A DNA stretch of 64,000 nt from contig JAFDAI010000005.1 of assembly GCA_019313905.1 (NCBI GenBank), forward strand, positions 2,997 through 66,996, in the 5' to 3' direction. The notes beneath the pieces were generated by a model, which was not told the origin of the DNA, did no database searches, and worked only from the letters and a program-made list of their open reading frames with translations. A program made the translations under genes and the position numbers. Below, piece after piece: positions 5,683 to 50,710 of this stretch. This stretch comes from Deltaproteobacteria bacterium (GTDB lineage Bacteria > Desulfobacterota > Syntrophia > Syntrophales > UBA2210). Every line of letters begins with the position of its first letter. The first letter of the stretch is position 1.

Positions 5683-5796
5683 TATTACCCTTCCAAGTAG
5701 AGATGTGAGAAATTGTGCATGCTATATTTATCGGTTTGTCATGTCAAGAAAATAGGCGACCGCTAAGGTAGCATAGCGTGGCTTTTTGCGAATAAA

Positions 5797-29175: not shown

Positions 29176-29562
29176 TCAGCCCCCTTTGACAGCCGATGTA
29201 ATGGTGCCGTTTGCGTCAACCGAATAGACCAATGTGCCGTTGGCAGGCGTAGAGGTCATTACAAGGCCGGCCATGGTGCCCGTGGTAACCGCTGTAGTCA
29301 CATTGGCACTTGCCTTGAAACCGTTAGTCTGCAGGAGAGCTAAAGTTACAGTCCCTGTTGGATTTTCCGCAAAGTATGCCTGTGCCGCCGTGTAGGCATT
29401 TTTTACATCCGAGTTTGCCTGTGCGTTGAAACCCTTTGCCCTGTACGCCGAAAACTGCGGGATGGCGATTGCCGCCAGGATACCAATAATCGCGATGACG
29501 ATCATCAGTTCAATCAGTGTAAAACCCTTTTGTCCTTTTCTTCCGTTTAATTTCATCAACAT
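29176..29562 (-). CDS. pilA: Type IVa major pilin, Geobacter/Syntrophus-like
   Basis: Basic leader ...KGQKG|FTLIELMIVIAIIGILAAIAIPQFSAYR; monocistronic with RBS, sigma54 site and terminator. Confidence 0.93.
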   Translation of the reverse strand: MLMKLNGRKGQKGFTLIELMIVIAIIGILAAIAIPQFSAYRAKGFNAQANSDVKNAYTAAQAYFAENPTGTVTLALLQTNGFKASANVTTAVTTGTMAGLVMTSTPANGTLVYSVDANGTITSAVKGG

Positions 29563-29908: not shown

Positions 29909-31519
29909 TCAAAAATAGATTGCAGGCCTTAACAGCAGGGGGGCTCCGATGTTGCCCAGATCTATGATGAAATGGCACACTACGCATGGAACAATGCTTT
30001 CATTTTTCTCCTTAATCAACCCCAGAAGCATCCCGTACAAAAAGGCAAACGAGGCAAACTGCAGGCCGCCTATAAAATAATGTGGAAGGGCATAGACCGC
30101 GCTTTGTATGACATTAACAAAAAGTGTCGACCTGACGAATTTCCTGAGGAGTTCAAAAAGAGTAAGCCTGTAGAAAATTTCCTCGCTGAACGCGTTCAGC
30201 AGGCTGAGAATGATAACGGGCAACCAGACGGCCGTCCTTGAACTATCCACGGGATTTCTCATGAGCAGATACATTGAATACCAGGAGCTGATGATAATTC
30301 CGACAAAAAATACATTTGAAAATTTTTTCCAGGCAAACTGTTTCACAAATGGAATCCTTGCCCATTTGAGCCACAAAAGGGACAACCATGCCAGGATAAA
30401 CAGCGGCAGGTAAGTCATTATACTGGCATACACCGTGGCCAATCTGGCGGAACCGGTAAATGGCCACCTGACATAACCGCGGCTGACCAGATACAAAACA
30501 GCACCCATGAAAACAAACATGCAAACCAGATATGAAACCAGTGGAAAATACCGGTTCATCCGCGATCTCAGCAATAAATTACGGGGCTTATGCTCCGTTT
30601 TGATTCCAGATGGCAACGGGCCTAAAAGGACTTCCGAAGAAGGCGCCAAATATCGCGGGTTTTTTTGTGTGAGCAGCAGGATAAGAGTGCCCGTCATTAT
30701 AAAAATGAGCATGATGAGCTGAGGCTGGGTGAGACCGAATGCCTCTATCCTGTTCGTTCTGATAAATTCCATAAGGAACCTGACAGTACCATACAGAACC
30801 AGGTATCCCCCTACTACCCCACCCTTATTTCGTATAAGACCAAAGGGCCACGCGAGCCACTCGCGAATCCGTATGAAAAGGCCTGCCTGATCAGACAAGA
30901 CCCCGGATGCCACTTTTTGAACAACCCCACCTATGTAAATTCGGTTGTAAATCCGGCTTAAAATAAAAAATATGGTCAGATTGGCCAGGATTGCGTAAAG
31001 GGGGACAGGATTTGTAAAGGAGAAGTGGCTGCCAAAGACAGTGAAGCTGAGGGGTTTTCCCCAGCAGCAGCCAGCGGATAAACATCCCAGCCTACCGATC
31101 GCGTGCGCCAGGGGCACGTGCATAAAAGCCATGTCAACGACGCGCATCTCAGCAAACCGGAAAAGAACTGTTAGAAGGAAAAAAAAGGCCACAGGCAGAA
31201 TCAGACTGGCGTGGAAGGTGTGAAGGGTACCGGAGGTAATTTGGGTGTAAAACAGTTCCAGGCTCCAGCTTTTCAAAGGATAGTGCAAAATGCCCCCCGC
31301 CCTGCTGCTTATATAACCGAGGGGGAAAAAGAAGAGGGCCATCATAAGGACGAAAGAGGTAACCTTTCGCTTCGGATAGCCCGCCTGCAACATCCTTCTG
31401 TAAAAGAAAAAAGAAGCGGTAAAGATGCCGAGCAGGATAAAAAAATAGTAAACCGCGTTTACGATCGAGAGGACCTGGTGATAATCAAAAAGATACCGCT
31501 GAAGGACAAACTTGAGCAC
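29909..31519 (-). CDS. Fusion of an Lgt-like diacylglyceryl transferase domain and a CPBP (type II CAAX/Abi) intramembrane protease
   Basis: N-half: TFHAS, IGRLGCLSAGCCWG, YGTVRFLMEFIR; C-half: SEEIFYR, YALPH, CHFIID. Confidence 0.8.
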   Translation of the reverse strand: MLKFVLQRYLFDYHQVLSIVNAVYYFFILLGIFTASFFFYRRMLQAGYPKRKVTSFVLMMALFFFPLGYISSRAGGILHYPLKSWSLELFYTQITSGTLHTFHASLILPVAFFFLLTVLFRFAEMRVVDMAFMHVPLAHAIGRLGCLSAGCCWGKPLSFTVFGSHFSFTNPVPLYAILANLTIFFILSRIYNRIYIGGVVQKVASGVLSDQAGLFIRIREWLAWPFGLIRNKGGVVGGYLVLYGTVRFLMEFIRTNRIEAFGLTQPQLIMLIFIMTGTLILLLTQKNPRYLAPSSEVLLGPLPSGIKTEHKPRNLLLRSRMNRYFPLVSYLVCMFVFMGAVLYLVSRGYVRWPFTGSARLATVYASIMTYLPLFILAWLSLLWLKWARIPFVKQFAWKKFSNVFFVGIIISSWYSMYLLMRNPVDSSRTAVWLPVIILSLLNAFSEEIFYRLTLFELLRKFVRSTLFVNVIQSAVYALPHYFIGGLQFASFAFLYGMLLGLIKEKNESIVPCVVCHFIIDLGNIGAPLLLRPAIYF

Positions 31520-31697
31520 ACAAAGACCTCTTTAGGAATCAAGAATAAATAAGTTATACAGATTGCGCCGTAATTCTGTTTGTTTTCAAGGCGTGTTGAA
31601 GCGCACATAACGAGTTATGTAAGCTTTGGCACAACACAGAAAACAAGCAAAAGGACAAGCAGGGTGTATGAGTTATTTATGCTTGCTGACTTAGTAC

Positions 31698-31729
31698 AAA
31701 AAAGTCCCGGCCGGACCGGGACCCTTTTT
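31698..31729. terminator. Hairpin terminator after the 1078-aa pilin-like gene
   Basis: GTCCCGG / CCGGGAC stem flanked by A6 and T5 tracts. Confidence 0.6.
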
Positions 31730-31762
31730 ATCCGCCAGAGACGGAAAATAGTTTATGATTAT

Positions 31763-34700
31763 CTACTGGGCCATTATTCCCGGAAATGCCACCGCACCCC
31801 CTACTCCCTGAATAAATCTCCAGGCAAAGTCGTCAAAATAGACGGTTTCTCTGTCATCAACCTGAATATCGGCATTTGCGTTGATACCGAGGGTGTGCGC
31901 ACCGAACTCCGGGATGTCCTGTGTGTTGAAATTATAGTCTTCAGTCGTGAATGTTGGCGAATATACTATCGTCGGGTTACCACCACCGTCATAGCCGATT
32001 TCCACCAGCTTGTGAGTAACCGCTCCACACCCGAGGATGGAGTGAGTGATCGTTTTACTGGTATAGGCCTTCTTTTTATCGGCAAGTCCTCTTCCCCAGA
32101 TGACCTGGGTGAAATAATCACCTTGATCGGGCCACTTGATAATGCCCCTGTCCAACTTCTTTCTGTTCAGATCGGTCGAAGATGCGTTACCGAAAGATGT
32201 ACCGACATCGTTGTCGGGACTTGCGAAAAAGGCGGTCAGGGCATTCACTCTTTGCTCGGGGTTATCAGGATTACAATCGGACACCATCTCGTAGATGTTC
32301 ACCATAATGGTAATCCATTCCCTGGGATATATTCGATAGTTGTAAATCGCCTTGTCCGTCTGATTGGTGGTGGCGGGAGGCCTGATGTAACCCACAGGGC
32401 CACTCGCCCCTCCGGCAACCGGTTTCCCGATCGGGTCCTCCTCGCTTACGGTAGCCGGGTCCCTCACCACTTCCGCCCCGGGAAGCCCGAGCACTGTAAT
32501 ATCCTCTACCTCATAAGTTTTGAAAAGGCCGTAGATATCGGTGATCTTCCAGACCAGTATCGGCGTTCCTCCGCTTCCTTCATAAATGACCTCGACGTTT
32601 TGGGTCCCGTCCCAAACAGTTTCATAGTACACATATACCTCTTCGTGGCCCACCAGGGGCGCGTATGCCATCCGTTCCCAGGGAGAATAGGAGCCACACC
32701 CTCCCGAATCAGTGGCATCTTTCTGCCACAGGACGAGGTAGGGAATTCCATCAAATGGAGGGGTATCGTCCCAGTGGCTTTCCTGGAAACCCTCGCAATT
32801 GACAGGATCCGCAACCGTTGTCGAACCATGATCGTCATAGATTGAGTCGGGGATATCGTCGTTTTCAGTGTAATAAGTTTCCTCGCCGCACCCAGACCCT
32901 TCGACATGCTCGGCCCTGCCCTGTATGCCTCTCATGATGGAGAGCCCGTAGTAGGAATATCCACTGTCGCCAGAAACCAGTTTAACCCTGAAGGACAACC
33001 CGGGCATGTAGTTTCCCGGATGGTTCAACGGATCAGTTTCTGAAAGATCGTCTTCCACGTCTGTAAAGCGGATCTTGGTCTGGAGATCATATCTGAGTTT
33101 CTGTTCCGATTCATTCCACAGGGTCTGCAATGGATTGGTACCGGAACCCCAGTCAACAGCGCCCAGGCTTTCCTCCATATAGACATCTTCAGGCACAAAA
33201 GCTGAGATGACCTGTTCGGTTCCGGTCACCTTTATGGCCATGTCTCCATCAATCTCTTCTCCGGCGTGTGACCCGATTATGGATCTGACATTGTCAGGGG
33301 TCATCTCACCCTCAATAGTTCTGTAAAGTTCCATCACGCTCAGGGGTTGAAAAAGGGTTATGGACCTCGAAACCGAATCGCTCCCCATATTGACCGTCCC
33401 TGTTGAGGTGAACCTGGCAAACTCATTAAATGTCATGACCGTCTGGTCAGTTAGCGAACGGGTAAAGGGGGGAACACCCGGGGGACAGTGCAAACCGGTG
33501 AGTCTCCCGTTGTCTGTATCCAGATAATCGTACTGCAAGAAAAGCTCGGTGCCTTCCGGAGTCACTATGGTAAAAGTCCCCTGTACCCTGGGCAAAATTG
33601 TCAGATTGCCACTTATAGCGAGGTTGCTTGTCGATTGCGCTCCACAACTCGCGGGAGAGATTGTCTGATCACCGTTTACCTTCGCAGCCGGGTATACGGG
33701 GGCATTATCCACGGGAGTGCCGCTGGCGCTCGTACTCAAAGTAAATGTAACGGAAGAGCCGTCTACCGAGTAACCGGAATATGGCACGGTTTCATATGTT
33801 GAACCGGATGCATCGGGCACCGCGACGCGCAGGTCTCCGCTTTCAGTACCGGCTCCCGCGACAAAGTTGGAGGGTAAATTTACGGTCCCGATACCGCCAG
33901 GAGGTGTGACAACAAGGCTGTTGACCGTGGAATTCACGCTTAAAGACTCCTCAAACCAGTTCAGCTCCATGCTGAGCCTGAATTGATCGTTGTCCACAGG
34001 GATGGATTGATTCAGGAATAAGGAATCCATAAGATCCTGTCGATTGATGTTGAAATTGGCATCCCTGTGTTCCACGACCCTGCTGACCGCGTAATTCAGC
34101 CCGGATTGTGCCAGGTACTGGGCCTTTTGCGCATATGCAAACCTGATCGTGCCCGTGCTGGAAGAGCTGAAAAGGGAGACCATGGCGGCCCCCAGAATAC
34201 CTATGATGACTATTGTCACGATCACCCCTATAAGTATGGAGCCTGATCGACCCACAGGCAGGTAAAGTTTCAGGCCTTCAAACGTTCCGTGCCTTTTGAG
34301 CAACATGAAGAGTATCCAGCCGAGAAGGATAATCATGATCAGACCGGCTTTGTGGCACCAGGTAGCAGTCATCGTTCCCCTATCCTCAAATCCGGCTATA
34401 GCCACAAAACATCCGGGGGTTGTGGTCCCGGTACTTCCCGTTGGAACTGAGTAGCCGCTAAAGCCCTGCGGGACATAGACGTTTGAGGGCAAAATCTCGT
34501 CCACAAAAGTCATGCTTGTTCCTTCCGATGCGCTCAAACTCATTGAGATGCCTATGCGGGAAAGATCGCTGAGCCTGTCCGAGATCGACCAGGCATTCCT
34601 TGAATAATCGAGGTAGGTCAAGGAAAATGCCGACACATTGTCAGCCAATGTAAAGAAATTGCTGTAACCGTCGTAATCGCTGCTTTTAACCTGAAGTGTG

Positions 34701-34999
34701 TTCCCCGACAATCGAAAGGTTTCATCTATAAGTCTTCCATCCGGGCTCCGTCTTTCAATGGTGATCGTGCCAGTCCCCGCCGCGCTGATGGAAGTGAGAT
34801 TCTGCAGAGACATCCTCAAACGGGTCATGGCCAGCTGATTTGTCTGCGTAAGCGCGGCTGAATCCTTGGCGAAAAGGAAGGCATTGGTCATCTGGACAAT
34901 TCCAAGGCCGGCTACGGCTGACATGACAGAAACGATAAGCAAGGACACGATTATCTCGATAAGAGTAAAACCTTTATTTTTTCTGAACGGCATTTGCAT
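31763..34999 (-). CDS. 1078-aa pilin-like protein: PilW/PulJ-like pilin, GCF-TM segment, PilX-like pilin and large acidic extracellular domain
   Basis: N-terminal KNKG|FTLIE; PGCFVAIAG at Cys197 followed by a TM helix and KRH; second prepilin-like site GRSG|SILIGVIVTIVIIGILGAAM at Gly253 and AQKAQYLAQSGLNYA. Confidence 0.8.
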   Translation of the reverse strand: MQMPFRKNKGFTLIEIIVSLLIVSVMSAVAGLGIVQMTNAFLFAKDSAALTQTNQLAMTRLRMSLQNLTSISAAGTGTITIERRSPDGRLIDETFRLSGNTLQVKSSDYDGYSNFFTLADNVSAFSLTYLDYSRNAWSISDRLSDLSRIGISMSLSASEGTSMTFVDEILPSNVYVPQGFSGYSVPTGSTGTTTPGCFVAIAGFEDRGTMTATWCHKAGLIMIILLGWILFMLLKRHGTFEGLKLYLPVGRSGSILIGVIVTIVIIGILGAAMVSLFSSSSTGTIRFAYAQKAQYLAQSGLNYAVSRVVEHRDANFNINRQDLMDSLFLNQSIPVDNDQFRLSMELNWFEESLSVNSTVNSLVVTPPGGIGTVNLPSNFVAGAGTESGDLRVAVPDASGSTYETVPYSGYSVDGSSVTFTLSTSASGTPVDNAPVYPAAKVNGDQTISPASCGAQSTSNLAISGNLTILPRVQGTFTIVTPEGTELFLQYDYLDTDNGRLTGLHCPPGVPPFTRSLTDQTVMTFNEFARFTSTGTVNMGSDSVSRSITLFQPLSVMELYRTIEGEMTPDNVRSIIGSHAGEEIDGDMAIKVTGTEQVISAFVPEDVYMEESLGAVDWGSGTNPLQTLWNESEQKLRYDLQTKIRFTDVEDDLSETDPLNHPGNYMPGLSFRVKLVSGDSGYSYYGLSIMRGIQGRAEHVEGSGCGEETYYTENDDIPDSIYDDHGSTTVADPVNCEGFQESHWDDTPPFDGIPYLVLWQKDATDSGGCGSYSPWERMAYAPLVGHEEVYVYYETVWDGTQNVEVIYEGSGGTPILVWKITDIYGLFKTYEVEDITVLGLPGAEVVRDPATVSEEDPIGKPVAGGASGPVGYIRPPATTNQTDKAIYNYRIYPREWITIMVNIYEMVSDCNPDNPEQRVNALTAFFASPDNDVGTSFGNASSTDLNRKKLDRGIIKWPDQGDYFTQVIWGRGLADKKKAYTSKTITHSILGCGAVTHKLVEIGYDGGGNPTIVYSPTFTTEDYNFNTQDIPEFGAHTLGINANADIQVDDRETVYFDDFAWRFIQGVGGAVAFPGIMAQ

Positions 35000-35025: not shown

Positions 35026-35442
35026 CTATATTTCAATGCTTCCAAACAACAGTGCGTAGGTCAGACCGGATGACCCGGTTATAGTAACTTTTAAAAGGTC
35101 ACTGGAACTCCCCTCAACAGGAGTCCCGCCAGATCCGTAACCTGTTGCACCGGCTGTAACGGATATTCCTATTCCAGAGGCAGTGACATCGAAAAGTCCG
35201 CCGGTTATATTAGTTTGTAAGTCACTGATGCTGCCCAGTTCCCGGTATGCCCGCGAAATACTATCGGCCACCTGGTTCATGGCATGAACTTCCATGGTCT
35301 GAATCGCAGGCTGGGTGCTCCGGGTGAACACTCCACCCATCATTGAGACCAACATGGCCCCCAATATCGAGGTGATAATCAATGTCACGATTACTTCCAA
35401 CAAGGTAAAGCCTTCATGATTTCCCAATACTTCAGTTTTCAT
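35026..35442 (-). CDS. Minor pilin (PilV/PulI-like)
   Basis: HEG|FTLLEVIVTLIITSILG. Confidence 0.85.
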   Translation of the reverse strand: MKTEVLGNHEGFTLLEVIVTLIITSILGAMLVSMMGGVFTRSTQPAIQTMEVHAMNQVADSISRAYRELGSISDLQTNITGGLFDVTASGIGISVTAGATGYGSGGTPVEGSSSDLLKVTITGSSGLTYALLFGSIEI

Positions 35443-35963
35443 AATATAAATCCTGTATACGGAGTAATGTTGATAGCTCTTAACTCTAACCCTTCAGAGA
35501 CGTTTATGGGTGCGGCTGCTGTCAATCTCACGGTCGCACCGGCGTCCGTACAGGGAGACCCCCAATTTTCAAAGGAATATGTAAAGTCGGAAACCGAAAG
35601 ACCATATCCGGCAAGATCGACATCGAGATCATCCTCACCTGGCAGCTGTTTTTTTGTATTTATATTTCCACCAGTAAAGAGCCAGTACTTGTTCTGGAAA
35701 GAGTGAATCCCCCACACGTCATTTGAACTCATGCTCTTCATCTGGGCGTATCGCAGATGAGACTTCAGGATTTCCGTTCGTGCCACCAGTTCCGAATGAT
35801 GATCTGTAGCTCTCACCGCGACAAACGCGGAGACTATTCCAATCAAGACCAAAACAGCGATTACCTCTATCAAAGTAAATCCTGATTTATTTGTCCTTTT
35901 GCCTGGACCGGAACTATTTTTAATCATTGTTGCCCCTTTTCTGTTGAGGTCTTTAGCCGACAT
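35439..35963 (-). CDS. Minor pilin (FimT/GspH-like)
   Basis: NKSG|FTLIEVIAVLVLIG...LKSHLRYAQMKSM; start may be at 35927. Confidence 0.85.
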   Translation of the reverse strand: MSAKDLNRKGATMIKNSSGPGKRTNKSGFTLIEVIAVLVLIGIVSAFVAVRATDHHSELVARTEILKSHLRYAQMKSMSSNDVWGIHSFQNKYWLFTGGNINTKKQLPGEDDLDVDLAGYGLSVSDFTYSFENWGSPCTDAGATVRLTAAAPINVSEGLELRAINITPYTGFIL

Positions 35964-36543
35964 TACAGGAATATCTCTCCATCGTATAAGTGAGAAAACC
36001 TCCTATAATAATGCTGCCGATCGTGAGCGGCAGCAACGCAAAGGTCACAATTGGAATTCTCAAATCTATCTGAAGAATTACACTATTGATGATGATTACT
36101 CCTACATATAAAAATATGCCGAACTTGGCCGATCTGACCGATACCGGCCGACCTGAAACAAAGGATATGCCCAAAAGAGCAAAACCGATCGCGATTGCAA
36201 AAGAAAACTCCGGCTGATACAGTAACCAGATTGCCTGATAACTGGCACTGCTGATGGTTTCCAGGCTCCGCGAGAAAACGATTCCCACTACAAGATAAAA
36301 AAGGCTTACGAGGATAAAGTAGAAACCGCACTGGCTCTTCGTGATGCTTTCCGGAAATAACCTGAACCCTTTTAAATCGCGGGGCCGCACAAGAAAGTTA
36401 CGGATCCTGTTAACTGTTCCATATCGCACCGGACGCAGCCCGATCCGGGCCATAACCCGGTCGGCAAAATCATCGGGTGGCTGTACCGGAGACACCTCTT
36501 TTATCATATCCATGATGGCTTTGTTTTTGATTTTATCTCCCAT
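35953..36543 (-). CDS. Putative membrane anti-sigma factor (about 4 TM)
   Basis: PVQPPDDFADRVMARI then hydrophobic helices; directly downstream of the ECF sigma gene. Confidence 0.65.
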   Translation of the reverse strand: MGDKIKNKAIMDMIKEVSPVQPPDDFADRVMARIGLRPVRYGTVNRIRNFLVRPRDLKGFRLFPESITKSQCGFYFILVSLFYLVVGIVFSRSLETISSASYQAIWLLYQPEFSFAIAIGFALLGISFVSGRPVSVRSAKFGIFLYVGVIIINSVILQIDLRIPIVTFALLPLTIGSIIIGGFLTYTMERYSCNVG

Positions 36544-36782: not shown

Positions 36783-37355
36783 TTACAACCTTTTATCCGG
36801 CTCACCGGACTGTTCCTCCATCAATTCCCGCAGTTTTTCCAGCCCCCGGTACGCCCTCATCTTCGCGGCACTCAGAGAAAGCCCTGATATTTCGGCAACT
36901 TCTTCAAATGAAAGTTCCTGATAGAATCTCAGCACCACAGCCTCTTTCAGGTTATCCGAAAGCCTGTGCAGGCACATATTCAGATGACATACCCTCTGTT
37001 CGCGAATCAGAGAGTGCTCGGGGTTGGAAGGATTATCTCGCGAGAGAAGATCAGTATCCTCTGTAAAGTCACGCAAAAATACCTTTTTCCTCTTCTTCAA
37101 GTGATTCCGGACGAGATTCAATCCTATCGTATAGAGCCAGGTAAAAAACTTCTTTCCCTGATCGAAACGCCCGAGATTCTCAAACGCCTTTACAAATGTC
37201 TCCTGCGCGAGATCGCTCGCGTCCTCATAGGATCCCGTCATGCGGTAAGCAAGGTTAAATATCGGCGCCTTGTATGTATCCACCAGCAGGGCATAGGAAT
37301 GACGATCCCCCTCAAGGACGCATCTTATGATGTCAATCTCTTTTTTTTCTTCCAT
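36783..37355 (-). CDS. ECF RNA polymerase sigma factor
   Basis: DASDLAQETFVKA, FFTWLYTI (region 2); LSFEEVAEISGLSLSAAKMRAYRG (region 4). Confidence 0.92.
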   Translation of the reverse strand: MEEKKEIDIIRCVLEGDRHSYALLVDTYKAPIFNLAYRMTGSYEDASDLAQETFVKAFENLGRFDQGKKFFTWLYTIGLNLVRNHLKKRKKVFLRDFTEDTDLLSRDNPSNPEHSLIREQRVCHLNMCLHRLSDNLKEAVVLRFYQELSFEEVAEISGLSLSAAKMRAYRGLEKLRELMEEQSGEPDKRL

Positions 37356-37541: not shown

Positions 37542-37823
37542 TTAAGCTTCTATCCGTTTTTTGATGAGACTGTAAACTTCTTTTCGATGGATTATACCGA
37601 GAATTAAAATATCGTCACCGGAAACTTTAAAAACAACACGGTAATCTCCGACTCTTAACTTCCAGTATCCCTTAAGGGTTCTTTGCAACGGTTTCCCATA
37701 GGCTTCAGGTTGCGTGGCAAGCCGATCTTCTATGGCTCTTTTGATCATACCCCTGTTTTTAACATCAATTTTCGGCAGGTCAGATCTCTTGACATCCGGA
37801 TGGTATTTGAGTTTGTATGCCAT
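37542..37823 (-). CDS. RelE/ParE family toxin
   Basis: YGKPLQRTLKGYWKLRVGDYRVVF...IIHRKEVY. Confidence 0.9.
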   Translation of the reverse strand: MAYKLKYHPDVKRSDLPKIDVKNRGMIKRAIEDRLATQPEAYGKPLQRTLKGYWKLRVGDYRVVFKVSGDDILILGIIHRKEVYSLIKKRIEA

Positions 37824-37846
37824 TGCCTTTTCACAAGAGCTGAGCT

Positions 37847-38074
37847 TTAAGACCATACATCATCATGGCTTAGCGCCTTAGAGTCATTCCATGATTTTTC
37901 CCTTTTTTCGGCAAATCCGGAAAGGGCGATATCCTCTTGAATCTCCATGGCCTCTTTGAGCAAATCTCTGACCTTAGCGGACAATGAAACATTATCCTTC
38001 TCTGCCAGAAGTCGGACATCATGGTAAAGTAAATTGTTCAGGACTACATTTATACGTGGATTTTGAGCCGGCAT
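37847..38074 (-). CDS. Antitoxin (RHH/RelB-like)
   Basis: MPAQNPRINVVL...SLSAKVRDLLKEA...LSHDDVW; immediately upstream of the toxin. Confidence 0.85.
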   Translation of the reverse strand: MPAQNPRINVVLNNLLYHDVRLLAEKDNVSLSAKVRDLLKEAMEIQEDIALSGFAEKREKSWNDSKALSHDDVWS

Positions 38075-38310
38075 GATCTTTTCCTCCGAATAAAATTGAG
38101 AATAAGTGTAACAGTGGTGACACACCATGTCAAATTAAAAAATAGGTGGGGTCAGACCCCATGACCCAACTGGAATATTGTCAAGACAATTTTCCATAGT
38201 TATAGAATATTGTCGATAGAGGAGTTAAGTGACCAGCTATTAGCGGAGAAACAGTAGATTCTCGTACCAAACATGGCTTCGAAATGCGCCGTATCCCCAC
38301 TTTTTCCTAA

Positions 38311-39417: not shown

Positions 39418-40575
39418 GTGCTGTCTAAAAAGAATAACCTGCTTGTAACCACATCTACTTTCTGGAGATGGAAGGGTGATGTAATCCCCTCGTTTGTATA
39501 TGATCTAAGCAAACGTTTGGCAAAAGATTTTGATATTTGGGTGCTGGCTCCACATTCCAGGGGAGCGGCAATATCCGAACAATTGGACGGATTAAATATC
39601 TTCAGATACAAGTATTATTTTAACAAATATCAATACTTGGGTGAGAAAGCAATCCTTCCTAATTTAAGAAGAAATCCCTTTTTATGGCTACAGGTACCCT
39701 TTTTTCTTATTGCGCAATTACTTGCAATCAAAAAAATAGCGAAAAAACATAACATTTACCTTATACATGCTCATTGGATAATACCACAGGGGATCATAGC
39801 TGTTTTATATAAATTCTTCTTCAATAGAAATGTTAAGATAGTTGTTACAAGCCACGGAACTTTGAACAATATTGACCGCCTGACTGTTGTCAGTTCGGCT
39901 ATAAAAGATGAAGTTGTGTCTTTAGGAATAAACAGAAATCTGCCTATTGATGTCGTACCGATGGGTGTTGATTTCTCACTCTTCAGTCCGGAACATTTTA
40001 ACGAAAGCATAAAGAAAAAATATTCTATTAATGGCCCTTTTCTTCTTTTTGTAGGACGACTCTCTGAAAAAAAAGGCATTGAATATTTAATCAAGGCTAT
40101 GCCCTCCATTCTCCTTGATTTTCCGGAGACAAAGCTGTTGATAATCGGCGAAGGAGAAAAAGAGTTTGATCTCAAGTCTCTTTCAGAAAAATTAAACCTA
40201 ATGGATAAATCGGTTATTTTTGCGGGTGCAATATCAAATGAGAATCTTCCTCAATATTATGCTACAGCGGATATTTTTATTAATCCCTCCTATTCTGAAG
40301 GATTCGGCCTTGTTTTTGTTGAAGCTATTGGTAGTGGGACCTACACAATTGGTACGGATTTGCCTGCCATATCAGATATTATAAAAGAAGGGAAAACGGG
40401 GTTCATAGTAAAACAGAAAGATTCAGAACAGATTGCGGATAAGGTTAAATTCATTCTTTCAAACAAATCGAAACTCATAAATATAAAGCACAAGGCCAGG
40501 AAAATAATAATTAAGAAGTTTGATTGGAATATTATTTCTAAAATATATAAACAAATATTAGCGTGTGTTAAATGA
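39418..40575 (+). CDS. GT4 glycosyltransferase (apparent short in-frame deletion)
   Basis: HAHWIIPQG, FVGRLSEKKG, EGFGLVFVEA. Confidence 0.88.
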   Translation: MLSKKNNLLVTTSTFWRWKGDVIPSFVYDLSKRLAKDFDIWVLAPHSRGAAISEQLDGLNIFRYKYYFNKYQYLGEKAILPNLRRNPFLWLQVPFFLIAQLLAIKKIAKKHNIYLIHAHWIIPQGIIAVLYKFFFNRNVKIVVTSHGTLNNIDRLTVVSSAIKDEVVSLGINRNLPIDVVPMGVDFSLFSPEHFNESIKKKYSINGPFLLFVGRLSEKKGIEYLIKAMPSILLDFPETKLLIIGEGEKEFDLKSLSEKLNLMDKSVIFAGAISNENLPQYYATADIFINPSYSEGFGLVFVEAIGSGTYTIGTDLPAISDIIKEGKTGFIVKQKDSEQIADKVKFILSNKSKLINIKHKARKIIIKKFDWNIISKIYKQILACVK

Positions 40576-40842
40576 GTTGCAATAATGTTTTCCGCAGAAA
40601 GGGAGAGCGGGGTTGAAGTCGTATAGAAACAATTTTTTGATTGATCGCATAAAAAACCCCTTAAAGCGATTTTATTGTCATGAAATACAAGGTTTCTCTT
40701 GAGTTTTCCGTCAATGCAAAACAGCAAAGAAGATTATCACAGACAAATTTTACTAAAGTGTAACATCGAATGACAGCGAGTTTTCTGTGTGCTGATTTTA
40801 AAAAGGAAAAGCTGAAATCAATTTTTCGGATAAGGTGGTAAT

Positions 40843-41724
40843 ATGAAAATAGAATATCAACTGATTAAAGATGGATTAATGATTATGAAAAGGTTTGGAA
40901 TACGACATGCCATACGAAGAACAAAAGACTTAATTCTAGTTAAAAAAGAAGAGAAAAGAAGGGCTAAGCTATATAATAAGATTAAGCCTGAGGGAACAAT
41001 AATAAGAGAAATTATCGGCAGTAAGATGAAGCTGGATATGAGTGACCAGGGAATACATAGGGATTTGTTTCTAGATGGCATACGGGAACCGGTTGCAACA
41101 AAACATTTAATGGGTGTTCTGACAAAAAACGATGTGGTGTTGGATATAGGAGCAAATATAGGCTATTACACCCTCCTGGAAGCCAAACTATGTAAGAAGG
41201 TTTATGCCGTTGAACCAGTCCTAAGTAATGTGGTTGTTCTCAAAGACAACATAAAGTTAAATCATTATAACAATGTGGAAGTTTCTAGTTTGGCCTTTGG
41301 TAAAGCCACAGGGATAGAAAAGATGTACTTGTCGCCAAAGAGTAATTGGCATAGCTTTTACCCGATAAAAAATATGGTTGGAGAAGCGAAAATCAACGTT
41401 GACACCGTTGATAATTTTCTTAAAGACAGAGAAGATCCAACAATCGTAAGGATGGACGTTGAAGGATACGAATTGAACATATTGTATGGCATGACAGAGA
41501 CTTTAAAAAAGATAGATAGATTATTCATGGAAATCCACGCTGATATAATGAGTCTGGAAGATACGAAAAGATTGATTGAGATATTAAACAGTGAAGGTTT
41601 CTTCCCGGAACTGATTATAAAATATGACAGACCAGGTCTAAGCAGGATCTTGCCTGACGATTATATTGGCAAAATTTATAAGGGAGATAAAGGTGGATAC
41701 GAGGTTTTTTTCAGAAAAAAATAA
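40843..41724 (+). CDS. FkbM family methyltransferase
   Basis: VLDIGANIGYYT, YAVEP, RMDVEGYE. Confidence 0.9.
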   Translation: MKIEYQLIKDGLMIMKRFGIRHAIRRTKDLILVKKEEKRRAKLYNKIKPEGTIIREIIGSKMKLDMSDQGIHRDLFLDGIREPVATKHLMGVLTKNDVVLDIGANIGYYTLLEAKLCKKVYAVEPVLSNVVVLKDNIKLNHYNNVEVSSLAFGKATGIEKMYLSPKSNWHSFYPIKNMVGEAKINVDTVDNFLKDREDPTIVRMDVEGYELNILYGMTETLKKIDRLFMEIHADIMSLEDTKRLIEILNSEGFFPELIIKYDRPGLSRILPDDYIGKIYKGDKGGYEVFFRKK

Positions 41725-41732
41725 ATAGTCGT

Positions 41733-42728
41733 TTGAAATTCAACCCCCTATGCCATTCCAATCTATATAAGAAAGTTGATATGAGAAAAAAACGCATATG
41801 GCCTCTTATCACAATAGTATCTATTGCGGCCTTAATAATAATATATATCTATCATCACCCTTATTCCCTTGAACCTTTTAAAGATGTTAGTCCCTCTATC
41901 CTCATTTGTTTAATAATCAGCAGAATTTTGTTCCAAATAACAAACGGGCTTATATTGCGAGAAGTTGCATCCAAGTTTAATATAGTACTGACTATAAAGG
42001 AATGGTTTGGTCTTCCCTTTGTTACAGCCATGGGGAATTATATAACGCCCTTTTCCGGTGGTATGATTGCCCGGGCATCATATCTGAAGTACCGCCATAA
42101 TTTCTCTTATGCGCAGTTTGTATCGGTTCTTGGAGCAAGCTTCCTGATATTCTTCTGGATAGCCGGCATGACAGGCATAATTACTCTTATATTGTCTCTT
42201 GAGAGGTCAGCGATCTACTGGCAGTTAATTTTCTTTTTTGGAGCGGTTGTCCTAAGCATTTCAATGGTCGCCATTCTCCCTTCTGTAAAGCTGCCCGGCA
42301 ATAACAGACTGTCAACACTTATAAATAACTCACTTGAAGGATGGGATTTCATAAAAAGCGACCTGTTTCTTTTAACCAAACTCGCCCTGTATACACTTGC
42401 AAACATTTTTATAAACGGGATCTCCTTCTGGCTGGCATTTGTTGCACTGTATGGAACTTCTTTATCAGTTGGAAAGGCTTTTCTAATCAGCCTGTTTTCG
42501 ACCTTTTCCATTCTTGTGAGAATAACGCCTGGCAATTTAGGGGTTTTTGAGAGTATTGTCAGCCTTAGCTCTGGAATTTTAGGGGTTGGCGTTAGCCCTG
42601 GTTTAATGGTATCCCTGCTCATCAGGGCGGCTTCCATGATTCCTATCTTCACCCTGGGCCCGATCTTCAGTTTTGTGCTTACACGTGAATTAGCGGGTAA
42701 TAAAAGAAGAAATGACGATGATAACTAA
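41733..42728 (+). CDS. Flippase-like membrane protein (lysylphosphatidylglycerol synthase TM / YbhN family)
   Basis: Multi-TM; NYITPFSGG..ARASYLK; ITPGNLGVFE; start possibly MRKKRIW at 41781. Confidence 0.8.
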   Translation: MKFNPLCHSNLYKKVDMRKKRIWPLITIVSIAALIIIYIYHHPYSLEPFKDVSPSILICLIISRILFQITNGLILREVASKFNIVLTIKEWFGLPFVTAMGNYITPFSGGMIARASYLKYRHNFSYAQFVSVLGASFLIFFWIAGMTGIITLILSLERSAIYWQLIFFFGAVVLSISMVAILPSVKLPGNNRLSTLINNSLEGWDFIKSDLFLLTKLALYTLANIFINGISFWLAFVALYGTSLSVGKAFLISLFSTFSILVRITPGNLGVFESIVSLSSGILGVGVSPGLMVSLLIRAASMIPIFTLGPIFSFVLTRELAGNKRRNDDDN

Positions 42729-44933: not shown

Positions 44934-45371
44934 CTAATATTGGGGTAACTCCCAATCCGCTGTCGCTGATCCTGTACGACCCGAGGAAATCGACCATACC
45001 GCTTTCACAGTAACAATACTGCTGGTATTCGTAAATATATAGTCAAAATCTTCACTACCTGGTGGATGAGCGGCGGAGGCGTCTTTCACCTGAGTTGCAG
45101 TAGGCGCGACACCATTTGACATCGCAAGCCTCGCAAATTCTAATGAGCAGGTCGACAGTCCAGCCGCGAGAGCGCCATCAACCGCAGTCTCATTGGCATC
45201 CTGGGTAAGATCCATGAATTTGGGTATCGCCACGGCTGCCAGAATGCCCAGTATGATCAAAACGGCTATGATCTCAATGAGGGTAAACCCTCCTATGCCT
45301 CCCGGCAAGGGAAGGTAGCTTTTGCCGATGGTACGGTGCGGCCGTTTTGCTGGAAAGTAGGATCGATTCAC
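44934..45371 (-). CDS. Type IV pilin paralog (MshA-like), atypical leader
   Basis: LPGGIGG|FTLIEIIAVLIILGILAAVAIPKF; GTG start. Confidence 0.8.
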   Translation of the reverse strand: MNRSYFPAKRPHRTIGKSYLPLPGGIGGFTLIEIIAVLIILGILAAVAIPKFMDLTQDANETAVDGALAAGLSTCSLEFARLAMSNGVAPTATQVKDASAAHPPGSEDFDYIFTNTSSIVTVKAVWSISSGRTGSATADWELPQY

Positions 45372-45505: not shown

Positions 45506-45877
45506 TTAGGGCGCCTTCCAATTCCCAGTAACGGTTCCTGCGCTCGAGTCCGACCATGACACAGTCACAGTTACAACAGAACCGGCAGAAGCAAAACCGT
45601 AGTCAAAATCATCACTGCCTGGTGGATTAGCGGTGGCGGCTGTTACCACAGCGGCTGCAGTAGGCGCGACACCATTTGACATTGCAAGCCTCGCAAATTC
45701 TAATGAGCAGGTCGACAGTCCAGCTGAAAGACCACCTTCGAGTGCTTTAGTATTGGCGTCACTCGTCAAACTCAAGAACTTCGGTACCGCCACCGCGGCG
45801 AGAATGCCCAGGATGATCAGGACCGCGATGATTTCGATCAATGTAAAACCCTTCTGATTCCTCAACTTAATTTTCAT
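45506..45877 (-). CDS. Type IV major pilin (MshA-like)
   Basis: MKIKLRNQKG|FTLIEIIAVLIILGILAAVAVPKF; AAGGAGG RBS; own sigma54 site and terminator. Confidence 0.9.
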   Translation of the reverse strand: MKIKLRNQKGFTLIEIIAVLIILGILAAVAVPKFLSLTSDANTKALEGGLSAGLSTCSLEFARLAMSNGVAPTAAAVVTAATANPPGSDDFDYGFASAGSVVTVTVSWSDSSAGTVTGNWKAP

Positions 45878-46390: not shown

Positions 46391-47746
46391 CTACAAATTT
46401 TGTTGCTTTTTCAGCGAGGGTACTTCTATTTCATATTTTCTTATCCGATGCCAGAGGCTGCGTTCCTTTATGCCCAGCAATCTTGCCGCTTTTACCTGTT
46501 TACCATCCGCCTTGACAAGGGCTTTGATTATCATATTCTTTTCCAATCTTTTTAACCTGCCGTCTATCGATATTCCCTCCTCCGGCAACTCATCATCGGA
46601 TATTTGGCGATTATCCTCTTCCAGTATATTCACCGGCAGGTGTGAGGTCTCAATAACACCCGATTCTGTCATAAGCGCGGCCCGCTCTATCACATTTTGA
46701 AGCTCTCTCACATTACCGGGCCATGAATACGTTTTCAGGTGTTCCATGGCGTCCGGAGAAATTTTTACCGGCCTGGGTGCATCCTTCAAAAAATAATCAG
46801 TCAGGACGAATATATCCTTCCTTTTTCTGAGCGGAGGCAGTATAAGGGGAAAAACATTAAGCCGGTAATACAGATCCTCCCTGAATCTTCCATCCTTCAC
46901 CATCTTGAAAAGATCTTTGTTGGTGGCGGCGATAAAGCGCACATCCACCCTTATGAGTTGATTACCGCCGAGCCGCTCAAATTCCTTCTCCTGCAATACG
47001 CGAAGCAGCTTTGCCTGGATTGCCAGGGACATATCCCCTATCTCGTCCAAAAAAATGGTGCCGCCATTGGCCAGCTCGAATTTCCCCTTCTTCCTCGCAG
47101 TCGCCCCTGTGAAAGCGCCTTTTTCATACCCGAAAAGCTCGCTTTCAAGAAGATCCCCGGGGATGGCGACGCAGTTAATCGTCACAAACGGCTTGCCTGC
47201 GCGAAGACTGTGCTTATAGATGCTCGTAGCGACAAGTTCCTTACCCGTGCCGCTTTCACCCATAATTAGGACCGTGGTATCAGTCGGGGCAACCTTAAGG
47301 ATCTGGCTGAATACCCCACGTATGATTTTGCTCTGGCCGATCATCTCCGGAAAGAGTTTCTCTGCTTCAACTCTTCCCAATATATCAGTGATCTCCCTCA
47401 ACACCTGTCCGTAATGTCCGATGTCATCATCAGGTTTCTGTCTTTTTTCAGCAGCAACACCCCGGAATACCGGCAACTTTTCTGTTTCTTTAACAAATTG
47501 TTTCACCGGCCTCAGTATGAGCCAGATCACTAGAAATCCACACAGGAAGGTAAGTACACTTATTCCGCCCCCCCATAAGAGGTGTGTTATTCCCAAGTGG
47601 TATGAACCGCTTGTCGTATGCAAGGCAATAATAAAAGACAGGATTGACATCCCGGAGAAGATACCGGGGATAATGATATAGAGGCTTATGCTGTATCTGG
47701 AACCGGCCGAGAAAGGTCTTCTGCCGGTTTTATCTGTCTGGGACAT
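46391..47746 (-). CDS. Sigma54-dependent transcriptional activator with two N-terminal TM helices and no receiver domain
   Basis: [36 protein letters not shown]-terminal HTH; hydrophobic segments at about aa 20-42 and 53-78. Confidence 0.92.
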
Positions 47747-47764: not shown

Positions 47765-48985
47765 CTATTTGACCATCTTCGTGAGATCCCACATGGGGAG
47801 AAATATGGCAAGGGCAAAAAAACCAACCACTGCCGCGAGAGAAATTATCAGGACCGGACCTATGGCATCAGACAACCCCTTTACTGCATATTCCACCTCA
47901 TCGTCATAATGGGTGGAAACCACCCTAAGCATTTCTTCAAGCTGCCCGGATTCTTCACCCACCGCTACCATATCCACTATCATGGGGGTAAAGTATTTTG
48001 CCGAGCGCAGGGGACCGGATATTCCCCTTCCCTCTTCAACTTTATCTTTCAGTCTCAAAAATTCCCTGCTTATGGCCGCGTTTCCGATTGTCCCGGAGAG
48101 AATTTCAAACGAGTCCAAAACAGTAACACCGCTCGCCTGCAAAATGGAGAAGATGCTTGCAAAGCGGGACATTGCCGCCTTCTCAAGAAGATTTCCTATT
48201 AAAGGAACCCGCAGAATAAATCTGTCTCTTACATACCGTCCCGGTTCGGTCTTGAACCAGTATTTCAAACCCACAATCACAAGAATGAGACCACCCAGCA
48301 ACAAATACCAGTAGTTATGCAGAAATCGGTACATATGCAGACATACAGCAGTGGGCAAAGGAAGATCCAGCCCTGCTTTGGTAAATATCTTTACGAACTT
48401 GGGAATAACAAATGTAAGAAGCACCAAAAAAGCCCCGACAAGGGCAATCACGACAATAATCGGATATTGCAGGGCCGATTTGATGTTTGATTTCACCTTG
48501 TGCTCATGCTCCATAATATAAATCAGTCGCTCAAGCACATCTGCAAGAGTACCGCTGGACTCCCCTGCTTTGATCATGCTGATATACAGAGGGGAGAATA
48601 TGCCGGGGTGTTTTCCGAAAACTTCATTCAGGGAAAAACCCTCTTTTATCTCTACAGCCATGGAGGCTATAGCGCTTTTAAGTTTCAGGTTCTGTGTCTG
48701 ATTCTCCAGCACCTCCAGCACTTTAAGTATCGACAACCCGGCAATAAGCATGGTTCTGAATTGCTTGGTAAACAGTATCAGTTCTTCCATTTTGACAGAT
48801 GCCAGCTTCGCCTGTATCCTGGCCAGGAAATCGCTGGATGTAGCGGAACTTTCCTCTGTCACAGCGGAAGGAATAAATCCCTGTTCGTTCAGCAAATTTT
48901 GGACCGCTCCAATCGATTCGGCTTCAACAACGCCGGAAACGGAGGCACCCTTTTGATTAATGGCCTTGTAAGAAAAGCTTGGCAT
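47765..48985 (-). CDS. pilC: Type IV pilus / T2SS platform protein (PilC/GspF/MshG)
   Basis: AGESSGTL, SALQYP, VGEESGQL, AIFLPMW. Confidence 0.9.
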   Translation of the reverse strand: MPSFSYKAINQKGASVSGVVEAESIGAVQNLLNEQGFIPSAVTEESSATSSDFLARIQAKLASVKMEELILFTKQFRTMLIAGLSILKVLEVLENQTQNLKLKSAIASMAVEIKEGFSLNEVFGKHPGIFSPLYISMIKAGESSGTLADVLERLIYIMEHEHKVKSNIKSALQYPIIVVIALVGAFLVLLTFVIPKFVKIFTKAGLDLPLPTAVCLHMYRFLHNYWYLLLGGLILVIVGLKYWFKTEPGRYVRDRFILRVPLIGNLLEKAAMSRFASIFSILQASGVTVLDSFEILSGTIGNAAISREFLRLKDKVEEGRGISGPLRSAKYFTPMIVDMVAVGEESGQLEEMLRVVSTHYDDEVEYAVKGLSDAIGPVLIISLAAVVGFFALAIFLPMWDLTKMVK

Positions 48986-49000
48986 TCACAATATCCTTGT

Positions 49001-50710
49001 CTATACCAGCATAACCGTTGATGCCGCTTCTTCAAGTGTTGTTATGCCCCGAACCACTTTGTCCGCGGCGTCATCTTTAAGGGTTCGAAGTTTTCCCGCC
49101 TTTTTCGCTCCCCGTGCAATCTCCTGTGCCGTCTTTCCCTTGACAATCATCTCCTGGATTGCCTCATCAATCTGCAAGACTTCAAAGACACCTGTACGCC
49201 CCTTATATCCGGTATTCATGCACTGGGCACACCCCCTGCCCCGTTGGAAATCGGCATTTTCAACTTTGTCAAGCCCCCATGCCTTTAACGCATCCATCGG
49301 AGGCGTATATGGCTCTTTACAGTACGGGCAAATAGTCCTCATAAGACGCTGCGCGAACGAGACCAGAAGAACGGAAGATGTGAGAAACGGCTCTATTCCC
49401 ATCTCTGTAAGCCTTGTAACAGCCCCCGCTGAATCATTCGTGTGAAGGGTGCTCAAAACCCTGTGTCCTGTGAGAGCGGCCTGTGTCGCGAGGCCCGCCG
49501 TCTCACTATCTCTTATCTCACCCACCAGCATGACATCGGGGTCCTGGCGGAGCATTGATCTGAGTCCGCTGGCAAAGGTCATACCCGCTTTGCGGTTAAG
49601 CTGCACCTGGCGTATATGATCCACCCTGTATTCAACAGGATCTTCCAGGGTGATGATATTGACATCAGGCTTATTGAGTTCTCTCAGGATTGCGTAAAGG
49701 CTTGTGCTCTTGCCGCTGCCTGTCGGCCCGGTACTGAGTATCATGCCATATGGTTTGACTATGGCTGATTCTATCTTTTCCCTGTCCTCATCAGACATTC
49801 CAAGCTGTTTAAGGGAATAAACCCCTGAACTCATATCAAGAAGGCGCAGCACTATATTCTCTCCATGGATAGTAGGAAGCGCAGATGCCCTGATATTAAT
49901 CTCCCTTTTCTCCATTTTAACTGTAAATCGCCCGTCCTGAGGGACTCTTGATACGGCTATATCCATATTTGAGAGGATCTTTACGCGCGACACAATAGGA
50001 AGCATGAGAGATTTTGGAGGAGATGGAACCTCACGAAGCTTCCCGTCGATACGAAACCTCAGTTGGGCCCTGTCCGCTTCCGGGCTGATATGAATATCAC
50101 TTGCGCCTTCGCGAACAGCCTGCGCGATTATAGAATTTACAATACGGACAACAGGGGCCTCTTCGGCCATATCCTGGAGAGAACTTACACGAACATCCGC
50201 TTTCACCGAAGATATTTCTTCTTCGACATCAACCTCCACCCCTTCCACTCCTTCCAGGATCTGTTGCAGTCCCCCGGTTTGAGCTCCGTACGTAAGGATA
50301 ATCAACTGGTTTATTTCTTTCTCTGAACAAATAACCGGTGTGACTTCCATATTTGCGAGCAACTCTATGGAATCAATAGCGTCGATATCCATAGGATCCG
50401 TCATGGCTACGGTGAGGAGATTTCTCTTCTTTTTCAGGGGAGTTACCTGGTATTTCTGAGCTATATCAAAGGGAACCAGGCTTGCCAGATCTTGGTCTAT
50501 AGGGTATTTTTCGGGAATATATTTCTCAACATTCAGTTGCTTGCTGATCTGGTCTATGATCTGATCTTCTCTGACCCACCCTTCCTGAATCAGATATTGT
50601 CCAAGCTTCAGACCTGCTTTTTTCTGCCCGGGCAACGCCTGTTCCAATTGATCTTCAGTCAACAACTCGGCGTTTACAAGCATTTCTCCTAATCTTTTTC
50701 GTATTCTCAA
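49001..50710 (-). CDS. pilB: Pilus assembly ATPase (PilB/GspE/MshE) with MshEN-like N-terminus
   Basis: RLGEML; GPTGSGKS, TLEDPVEY, LRQDPD, GEIRD, CPYC...CAQC. Confidence 0.92.
   Translation of the reverse strand: MRIRKRLGEMLVNAELLTEDQLEQALPGQKKAGLKLGQYLIQEGWVREDQIIDQISKQLNVEKYIPEKYPIDQDLASLVPFDIAQKYQVTPLKKKRNLLTVAMTDPMDIDAIDSIELLANMEVTPVICSEKEINQLIILTYGAQTGGLQQILEGVEGVEVDVEEEISSVKADVRVSSLQDMAEEAPVVRIVNSIIAQAVREGASDIHISPEADRAQLRFRIDGKLREVPSPPKSLMLPIVSRVKILSNMDIAVSRVPQDGRFTVKMEKREINIRASALPTIHGENIVLRLLDMSSGVYSLKQLGMSDEDREKIESAIVKPYGMILSTGPTGSGKSTSLYAILRELNKPDVNIITLEDPVEYRVDHIRQVQLNRKAGMTFASGLRSMLRQDPDVMLVGEIRDSETAGLATQAALTGHRVLSTLHTNDSAGAVTRLTEMGIEPFLTSSVLLVSFAQRLMRTICPYCKEPYTPPMDALKAWGLDKVENADFQRGRGCAQCMNTGYKGRTGVFEVLQIDEAIQEMIVKGKTAQEIARGAKKAGKLRTLKDDAADKVVRGITTLEEAASTVMLV

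Follow-up and report, generated by a model that had tools for sequence, protein, structure and literature searches.

The subject of this analysis is a gene at 31763-34999 on the minus strand of the window, a 64,000-nucleotide stretch of contig JAFDAI010000005.1 from a Deltaproteobacteria bacterium of the Syntrophales (assembly GCA_019313905.1), which encodes as one polypeptide a PilW-like minor pilin and, behind a spacer helix, a giant PilX-like minor pilin with a predicted prepilin signal of its own. The fusion is a conserved architecture and not an error, and from the pattern of conservation set out below we consider it rather probable that prepilin peptidase (PilD) processes the product at both signals. 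The open reading frame (ORF) is open throughout and specifies 1078 residues followed by a stop codon. A sequence-only reading of this DNA had placed two prepilin sites within the 1078-residue ORF, with a transmembrane (TM) helix ending in KRH between them, and this layout was confirmed with its coordinates exact. The parts of the gene and its product, numbered by residue, are as follows.

31763..34999, minus strand: the whole fused precursor gene, with stop-free full-length orthologues in the related genomes G009 (77% identity) and G011 (69%).
34970..34999, minus strand: leader peptide 1, MQMPFRKNKG, residues 1-10 ending in G10; N_methyl and TIGR02532 matches above cut-offs.
34895..34969, minus strand: TM1, residues 11-35, predicted to form the alpha1-N helix of the PilW-like pilin and carrying Glu at +5 (E15).
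34460..34894, minus strand: globular part of the PilW-like (W) pilin, approximately residues 36-180, with a hidden Markov model (HMM) match to a pilW-position gene.
34388..34414, minus strand: CFI-box remnant GCFVAIAGF, residues 196-204, with invariant C197-F198; the NF041770 domain sits here in homologues.
34298..34345, minus strand: TM2, spacer helix GLIMIILLGWILFMLL, residues 219-234, the counterpart of helix B, the last in the CFI-box-CTERM anchor.
34241..34297, minus strand: basic loop KRH...GRSG, residues 235-253 (19 residues), ending in G253; predicted to be cytoplasmic and a putative second leader.
34169..34240, minus strand: TM3, the predicted alpha1-N helix of the PilX-like (X) pilin, residues 254-277 (24 hydrophobic residues), without Glu at +5.
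31766..34168, minus strand: large, variable, presumptively extracellular part of the PilX-like protein, residues 278-1078, with an A-x-x-G-x-x-Y motif at 297-303.

Site 1 consists of G10 followed by F11 and E15, and is recognised by both Pfam N_methyl (30.8 bits, cut-off 21.2) and TIGR02532 (25.1 bits, cut-off 16.3). At site 2 the codon of G253 occupies 34241-34243, the junction G253|S254 is followed by SILIGVIVTIVIIGILGAAMVSLF, and the +5 residue is Gly rather than Glu; AQKAQYLAQSGLNYA corresponds to residues 290-304, downstream of TM3. No curated Pfam or NCBIfam model covers either globular part of the window protein and no family in these collections was found for its large C-terminal part, and in a few homologues the PilX-like part carries MAM-like, Reelin-subrepeat or choice-of-anchor J modules. 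A 421-residue ORF at 31580-32845 (plus strand) runs antisense to the fused gene within a region that is conserved as coding on the other strand, and is most likely spurious.

To establish how widely the fusion occurs, we searched 40 related genomes along with the window's own (G000; 41 in total) and, by reading the ORFs, found the single-ORF form in nine of them (G000, G004, G009, G010, G011, G016, G027, G038 and G040). G011 is a one-contig genome, and the G010 copy is cut by a contig end, yet open across the junction. For a sample of the phylum, the results table lists the fused form in six genomes (G000, G038, G058, G080, G084 and G328). From a large protein collection, a word-indexed search with scoring over residues 1-420 retrieved 50 proteins, 704-1456 residues long, all 50 of which carry an N-terminal G-F-T-L-I-E and a second Gly-hydrophobic motif at 237-369. 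An exhaustive profile search over 1.84 billion cluster representatives (50%-identity clusters) gave 802 proteins at E<=1e-30, and classing the best 150 of these by hmmalign to the family profile identified 103 as fused, four as fused but truncated, 41 as X-only and two as C-terminal fragments. Homologues are annotated as 'PilW family protein', 'type II secretion system protein' or 'prepilin-type N-terminal cleavage/methylation domain-containing protein', and Syntrophales and Smithella are among their source names. Moreover, Logan contigs from two other studies cross the junction (X1, 34195-34585; X5, 34210-34355) at 95-99% identity with no gaps; these contigs have small shares (0.07-0.19) and cover parts of 33993-34705. 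Because the junction is open in related genomes, database proteins, cluster representatives and independent contigs, the fusion is a conserved architecture. The sequence-only reading had proposed that a stop codon between the halves would speak against it and that homologues be inspected for fusion: no such stop occurs in the homologues or in the other-study contigs, and both fused and split states exist, with fused forms predominating among the best representatives.

To assess conservation at the two sites, 48 fused homologues were aligned; their mean identity is 28%, and approximately 29 columns are invariant (alignment A1 omits P0002, which is the window protein two residues shorter, and P0008 and P0030 (truncated); A2 omits in addition P0046 and P0048-P0051). 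At site 1, G10, F11 (Phe+1), T12, L13 and E15 (Glu+5) are invariant in all 48. At site 2, located at residue 237-369 in these proteins, the Gly preceding the predicted cut (Gly-1, G253) likewise shows no exception among the 48 or among the 103 fused representatives, while residue -2 varies (R in 28, S in 8, K in 6, others in 6); residue +1 is S in 39, A in 6 and T in 3, and +5 is never Glu. With Gly-1 fixed while its neighbour drifts, site 2 looks maintained as a cleavage site. An hhalign comparison was then made between the N-termini of 14 X parts, drawn from both fused and split genes, and 16 canonical PilX_N regions of related genomes; the two profiles aligned (95.7% probability, E 9e-9) with Gly-1 on Gly-1 and with the A-x-Y-L-A-E-S-G motif of the X parts on A-F-Y-x-A-E-A-G of canonical PilX_N. 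Site 2 is thus homologous to the PilX-type tip-pilin cleavage site, and since G253 is among the few invariant columns and the PilX_N alignment is in register, the site is unlikely to reflect chance. These comparisons support the view that the second half starts with a genuine PilX_N-type class III signal lacking Glu5, in keeping with the second, E5-less prepilin-type site that the sequence-only reading had recognised.

The terminal subunit PilX is described as lacking Glu5 and capping the filament, and tip complexes of the PilV-W-X and GspI-J-K type with such an E5-less cap are established (PMC13759059). The X part shares with these tip pilins a leader that ends in Gly, a helix of approximately 22 residues without Glu5 and a following A-x-x-A-E/Q-x-G motif, and differs from them in that the signal is internal, 253 residues into the window protein, that +1 is Ser, Ala or Thr across the family, and that the globular part of approximately 800 residues belongs to no family. 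A split relative, that of G024, scores 20.7-25.4 bits against the Pfam PilX_N model (threshold 25.5). The GspK model NF037980 was matched by one of 43 homologues (E 7.3e-4) and not by the window protein. A sequence search of solved structures with the family profile returned 11 distinct chains at E<=10, all on the first N-terminal helix region, and no GspK, PilX or PilW chain was among them.

Class III signals consist of a hydrophilic leader followed by 20-25 hydrophobic residues, often with Glu5. They are defined as N-terminal, prepilin peptidases cut them on the cytoplasmic side, and the leader varies in length, its last residue being Gly or Ala (PMC10191384). The loop ahead of site 2 has a median net charge of +4 (range 0 to +7), is positive in 47 of 48 fused homologues and has a median length of 14 residues when counting starts at the end of the final strongly hydrophobic window; for the loop of the window protein the same charge measure gives only +1. 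A basic loop is consistent with placement in the cytoplasm, the side on which the peptidase acts. The in-TM1-out-TM2-in-TM3-out topology put forward in the sequence-only reading fits these data, by virtue of a single spacer helix and a basic loop ahead of site 2.

The spacer proved to have a history of its own. In distant fused forms the linker between the halves is a CFI-box-CTERM domain (NF041770; E 2e-18 to 7e-23, cut-off 40 bits, reached in G016, G027, G038 and G040 and also in the split gene of G024), and 33 of 43 fused homologues contain it in full, with E down to 1.4e-23. Neither the window protein nor any other protein of the window genome matches NF041770. Alignment of the linkers indicated that in the window clade the core of the CFI-box has been deleted while Cys197-Phe198, the last helix (TM2) and the basic tail remain; C197 and F198 are invariant in 48 of 48 homologues and the Cys is present in 101 of 103 fused representatives. 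Deletions in P0015, P0021, P0047 and G004 likewise keep Cys-Phe, the last helix and the tail, and lose helix A. Helix B is thus kept in every truncated variant and helix A is dispensable, which argues for the last helix as the genuine membrane span and for three helices in all members of the family; the window protein has exactly one spacer helix. From these alignments we conclude that the spacer is a derivative of a CFI-box-CTERM anchor, reduced here to Cys-Phe, helix and tail. The linking helix of the sequence-only reading was therefore present as described, and its CFI-box-CTERM origin and the invariant Cys-Phe had been missed.

The CFI-box domain is common in the phylum sample. Eight of eight non-pilin CFI-box proteins of the related genomes (loci L051-L058) have it at the C-terminus: a Gly-rich run leads into CFIATAA(Y/F)GS, the protein ends 95-119 residues after the Cys, and a hydrophobic helix with an Arg/Lys-rich tail closes it. 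The domain is also C-terminal in the split W protein of G024, and every fused form has it internally. In the fused pilins of full length, 113-116 residues span the distance from this Cys to Gly-1; given the 95-119 residues of the non-pilin proteins, the second signal starts at the point at which a CFI-box protein would end. The pilin is the sole CFI-box protein of the genome in G016, G024 and G040. No paper on CFI-box-CTERM function was found in the open-access literature searched.

We next considered the relation between fused and split genes. A tree of X parts was built from 20 fused and 10 split rows, with 15 of the 50 database proteins taken in (fused G004, fused G016 and split G040:C15 are omitted, as the motif finder missed their site 2). 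Fused and split states interleave on it; well-supported branches force at least three changes, and parsimony counts six. Among the 41 X-only representatives, 35 have Gly-1 at positions 8-60 and the other six are N-terminally truncated. As the states interleave and the split X protein has an ordinary N-terminal leader, fused and split arrangements appear interchangeable, as expected if the fused protein were cut into the same products. Of 13 split W ORFs, 11 stop once the globular part is complete and have neither the Cys-Phe (CF) motif nor the second helix, and the spacer goes with fusion. Only G024 retains both: its W gene carries CFI-box, TM helix and basic tail, the W stop overlaps the X start (ATGA) behind a Shine-Dalgarno (SD)-like GAGAGG, and a single indel separates this arrangement from that of its fused sister P0018. 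In G007 (contig C28, locus L029, 276-2922) a W ORF with a Cys-Phe relic and no spacer helix overlaps the X ORF in another frame, which is either a recent split or a frameshift in an assembly that is 80% complete.

A model that accommodates these observations, and that we hold as a whole to be moderately probable, is that the precursor is a two-pilin protein with three helices in the inner membrane. TM1, with Glu5, would begin a PilW-like minor pilin as its N-terminal helix; TM2 would be the anchor of a degenerate CFI-box-CTERM domain that returns the chain to the cytoplasm; and TM3, which lacks Glu5, would likewise open a giant PilX-like tip pilin, with the basic cytoplasmic tail of the anchor doubling as the leader of the second class III signal. 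Prepilin peptidase would cut at the cytoplasmic face after both G10 and G253 and thereby free the PilX-like protein with Ser254 at its N-terminus. Cuts at both Gly residues would leave TM2 on the PilW-like half, which would therefore need further processing. The invariance of Cys-Phe points to another event at this motif, where we consider a second cut likely; in this part of the model, for which the case is weaker, an event at or near Cys197-Phe198 would free or modify the half still held by TM2. The release of a PilW-like and a PilX-like pilin by PilD, as formulated in the sequence-only reading, accordingly holds in this model for the PilX part, and falls short for the W half, which keeps TM2. 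Together with the GspH-like and PilV-like pilins encoded upstream, the products would prime a type IV filament with the approximately 800-residue PilX-like part at its tip. The fuller proposition, that PilD processes an internal class III signal, that CFI-box-CTERM serves as a removable topological adapter whose tail is the second leader, and that tip pilins are thus made at a fixed 1:1 ratio, strikes us as evenly balanced.

In the window clade the enzyme acting at Cys197-Phe198 may be encoded by the gene directly downstream, which the sequence-only reading did not mention:

29909..31519, minus strand: a 536-residue fusion of an Lgt-like domain (PF01790, E 3.5e-21) with a CPBP/Rce1-like intramembrane protease domain (PF02517, E 6.4e-15).

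EExxxR and HxxxD motifs are visible in its translation. Among the related genomes its homologues occur only in G005, G009, G010 and G011, each beside the fused gene, so that all five close-clade genomes have the pair. More distant homologues (33-40% identity) carry source names including Desulfobacter, Desulfatitalea and Spirochaetota, and circumstantially the close enzyme homologues seem to share their source with close pilin homologues, P0061 with P0011 (full CFI-box) among them. The arrangement recalls the CPBP 'myxosortase' systems (MYXO-CTERM/MrtP, JDVT-CTERM/MrtJ and Synerg-CTERM/MrtS), in which Cys, helix and basic cluster likewise follow one another and the CPBP gene adjoins; the MYXO-CTERM signal is described as tripartite with an invariant Cys (PMC11980579), and single-client sorting enzymes are reported to be often encoded beside their client (Haft preprint 10.1101/2023.06.07.544157). 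It differs from them in that the signal here is not C-terminal and in that the enzyme has an extra Lgt-like domain and lies below all Mrt cut-offs (MrtS 36.8 bits versus 130, MrtJ 31.1 versus 75, MrtP 26.5 versus 250). Neither Lgt nor such a fusion is mentioned in the Haft preprint (0 occurrences). A conserved protease neighbour that might process the CFI-box was looked for across 18 loci and rejected, as none was found.

Several observations weigh against the two-cut model and deserve to be stated together. The window protein does not match Pfam PilX_N (PF14341; gathering threshold 25.5 bits) at E<=1, and none of 43 homologues match it at E<=0.01, so that the link to PilX_N is made by profile-profile comparison. 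The open-access literature searched (supplements aside) offers no precedent for an internal class III signal, and the cleavages proposed here are all deduced from conservation. The invariant Gly could serve a tight TM2-TM3 hairpin instead, and the peptidase might have difficulty reaching a site so close behind another helix. For the PilW-like identity of the first half there are two grounds, the position of the gene and a single HMM match (E 7e-6). No homologue of the Lgt-like/CPBP enzyme was found with the distant fused forms of G004, G016, G027, G038 and G040, or at E<=1e-20 in 300 other genomes of the phylum sample, and its role therefore cannot be general. Finally, the fused gene of G004 has AAGGAG 7 nt before an ATG eight codons upstream of Gly-1, and a subclade (P0018, P0033, P0034 and P0037) keeps a Met where the split X gene of G024 starts, so internal initiation is possible in some lineages.

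To what extent could these data be explained otherwise? That the long ORF is an assembly or sequencing artefact, or a pseudogene arising from loss of a stop codon, might be suspected of a 171-contig assembly with 5% contamination; the junction is open in independent assemblies including single-contig G011, in 50 database proteins, in 103 cluster representatives and in contigs from two other studies, which effectively refutes this explanation, and we rejected it as having next to no probability. Internal initiation just upstream of site 2, which would make the PilX-like protein directly and render the long ORF partly a by-product, had been named in the sequence-only reading as an outcome that would overturn cleavage, and no start codon with a ribosome-binding site is conserved before site 2. 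The G004 site is a good one and the Met of the subclade is kept, whereas seven of nine fused genes show no pairing of SD and start codon in the 45 codons ahead of site 2. The window gene has in-frame ATG, TTG and GTG codons 5-32 codons before Gly-1, all of them without an SD; its sole SD-like site belongs to an ATG that lies 44 codons upstream, ahead of TM2, and this site is not retained in G009. Internal initiation would moreover leave the universal retention of TM2 unexplained. We therefore rejected it for the window gene and as a general mechanism, which leaves it possible for G004 and one subclade and, overall, very unlikely.

The two remaining alternatives keep the precursor and dispute the cut at site 2. 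A different protease could separate the halves, in which case Cys-Phe, helix and basic tail would constitute an internal Cys-type sorting signal, which the Lgt-like/CPBP enzyme here, and another CFI-box enzyme elsewhere, would cut and perhaps lipidate, site 2 would not be a PilD substrate, and the X protein would keep TM2 and the loop or be trimmed otherwise. The near-universal conservation of C197 and F198, the tripartite order shared with MYXO-CTERM and the adjacency of a CPBP gene in the close clade, along with the habit of single-client enzymes of adjoining their client and the circumstantial pairing of homologues, all speak for such a protease; what it does not account for is the invariant Gly-1 and the in-register PilX_N signal, and the absence of the enzyme from distant fused forms, the lack of a conserved protease neighbour and the sub-threshold Mrt scores further reduce its appeal. 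We regard it as unlikely as a replacement for PilD, and the mechanisms are not exclusive, since the two-cut model takes a Cys-Phe cut as its second step. Alternatively, only site 1 might be cut, leaving a three-helix inner-membrane protein with two periplasmic domains that acts as an anchored primer or platform and not in the filament tip. Covalent linkage alone would then guarantee 1:1 pairing, the invariant Gly could be structural, and internal prepilin cleavage, as well as pilin polyproteins and tandem or fused minor pilins, was not found in the open-access literature searched. Set against this are the repeated interconversion of fused and split genes, in which the split X protein has an ordinary N-terminal signal, the conservation of a leader-like basic loop and E5-less helix as in free PilX_N proteins, and the consideration, drawn from the tip-complex model (PMC13759059), that a tethered pilin helix could not be extracted into the filament core; we judge this reading to be rather unlikely, slightly below that of a different protease. 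The closest parallels for several modules in one polypeptide are the modular pilins and the dual-pilin fold of Clostridioides difficile PilJ (PMC9556784, PMC10191384), which likewise combine more than one pilin-like or grafted module; they have one N-terminal signal, one alpha1-N helix and no proposed splitting, whereas the fused protein has two signals and a spacer helix.

We then turned to the genomic context of the fused gene. An HMM of the W globular part had as its best non-self match in the genome the pilW-position gene of a canonical operon (E 7e-6), a gene that itself matches only N_methyl; no Pfam or NCBIfam PilW or GspJ match was obtained for the window protein, and TIGR01711 (gspJ) was matched weakly by four of 43 homologues (E>=0.0023). 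This second operon (contig C66 of G000, locus L048, 30-6527) encodes PilD at 5751-6527, GspH, V, W, an ordinary PilX_N protein of 176 residues and, beside it, a PilY1-like protein of 990 residues with VWA and beta-propeller domains. The prepilin peptidase of the genome is bimodular (A24_N_bact and Peptidase_A24). PilB- and PilC-type genes, a sigma-54 activator and further pilins lie within the window, 10-15 kb from the fused gene. The neighbouring features, with their recurrence across the 18 loci compared, are listed below.

29176..29562, minus strand: PilA-like pilin, 128 residues, downstream (N_methyl, E 1.3e-11).
35026..35442, minus strand: minor pilin at the PilV position, 138 residues, upstream; N_methyl match, neighbour in 17 of 18 loci.
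35439..35963, minus strand: GspH/FimT-like minor pilin, 174 residues, upstream; TIGR01708 E 3.2e-9, below cut-off; 17 of 18 loci.
35953..36543, minus strand: conserved membrane protein, 196 residues, possibly an anti-sigma factor (weak NF010501 match, E 0.025); 12 of 18 loci.
36783..37355, minus strand: ECF-type sigma-70 factor with Sigma70_r2 and Sigma70_r4; 6 of 18 loci.
44934-45371 and 45506-45877, minus strand: two tandem similar pilin genes adjoining the sigma-54 activator.
46391-47746: sigma-54 activator.
47765-48985: PilC/GspF-type platform gene.
49001-50710: PilB-type ATPase gene.

The conserved cassette thus comprises the ECF sigma factor (6 loci), the membrane protein (12), the H-like and V-like pilins (17 each) and W/X (18), and the sigma factor and membrane protein upstream suggest dedicated regulation. 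Its order of GspH-like, small pilin, PilW-like and PilX-like proteins is that of the fimU/T-pilV-pilW-pilX(-pilY1) and GspH-I-J-K cassettes, from which it differs in having W and X in one ORF, in lacking PilY1 and in the sigma factor and membrane protein upstream. The FimT-PilV-PilW-PilX order that the sequence-only reading had suggested is borne out to the extent that both upstream genes encode pilins, one of them GspH/FimT-like, and that the first half of the fused protein resembles the pilW-position gene of contig C66.

Prepilin peptidase is thought to remove only short N-terminal leaders, and a fully conserved second signal 250-370 residues inside a protein offers a direct test of internal peptidase action. 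If the two-cut model is correct, the precursor would be the first natural polyprotein substrate of this enzyme, two sorting systems (a class III signal and a Cys-type anchor) would act on one precursor, the stoichiometry of a tip complex could be set by gene fusion, and a class of subunits would escape programs that look for pilins at the N-terminus only. For the unstudied CFI-box-CTERM domain, and in the window clade for the Lgt-like/CPBP enzyme, the family further supplies a definite client in which the region of cleavage can be predicted, which would provide a first functional handle on this domain. The carriers are uncultured anaerobes whose pili are of interest for syntrophic contacts.

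Elsewhere in the window, a toxin gene of the ParE family (PF05016, E 5.5e-10) at 37542-37856 is overlapped on its upstream side by a small ORF at 37847-38128 (both minus strand), which matches no family and is probably the antitoxin gene; the toxin gene is located between the sigma factor gene and a glycosyltransferase cluster. Within a run of glycosyltransferase-type genes, the stretch 40001-42000 has a low GC content (0.344 versus approximately 0.46 elsewhere) and may have been acquired horizontally.

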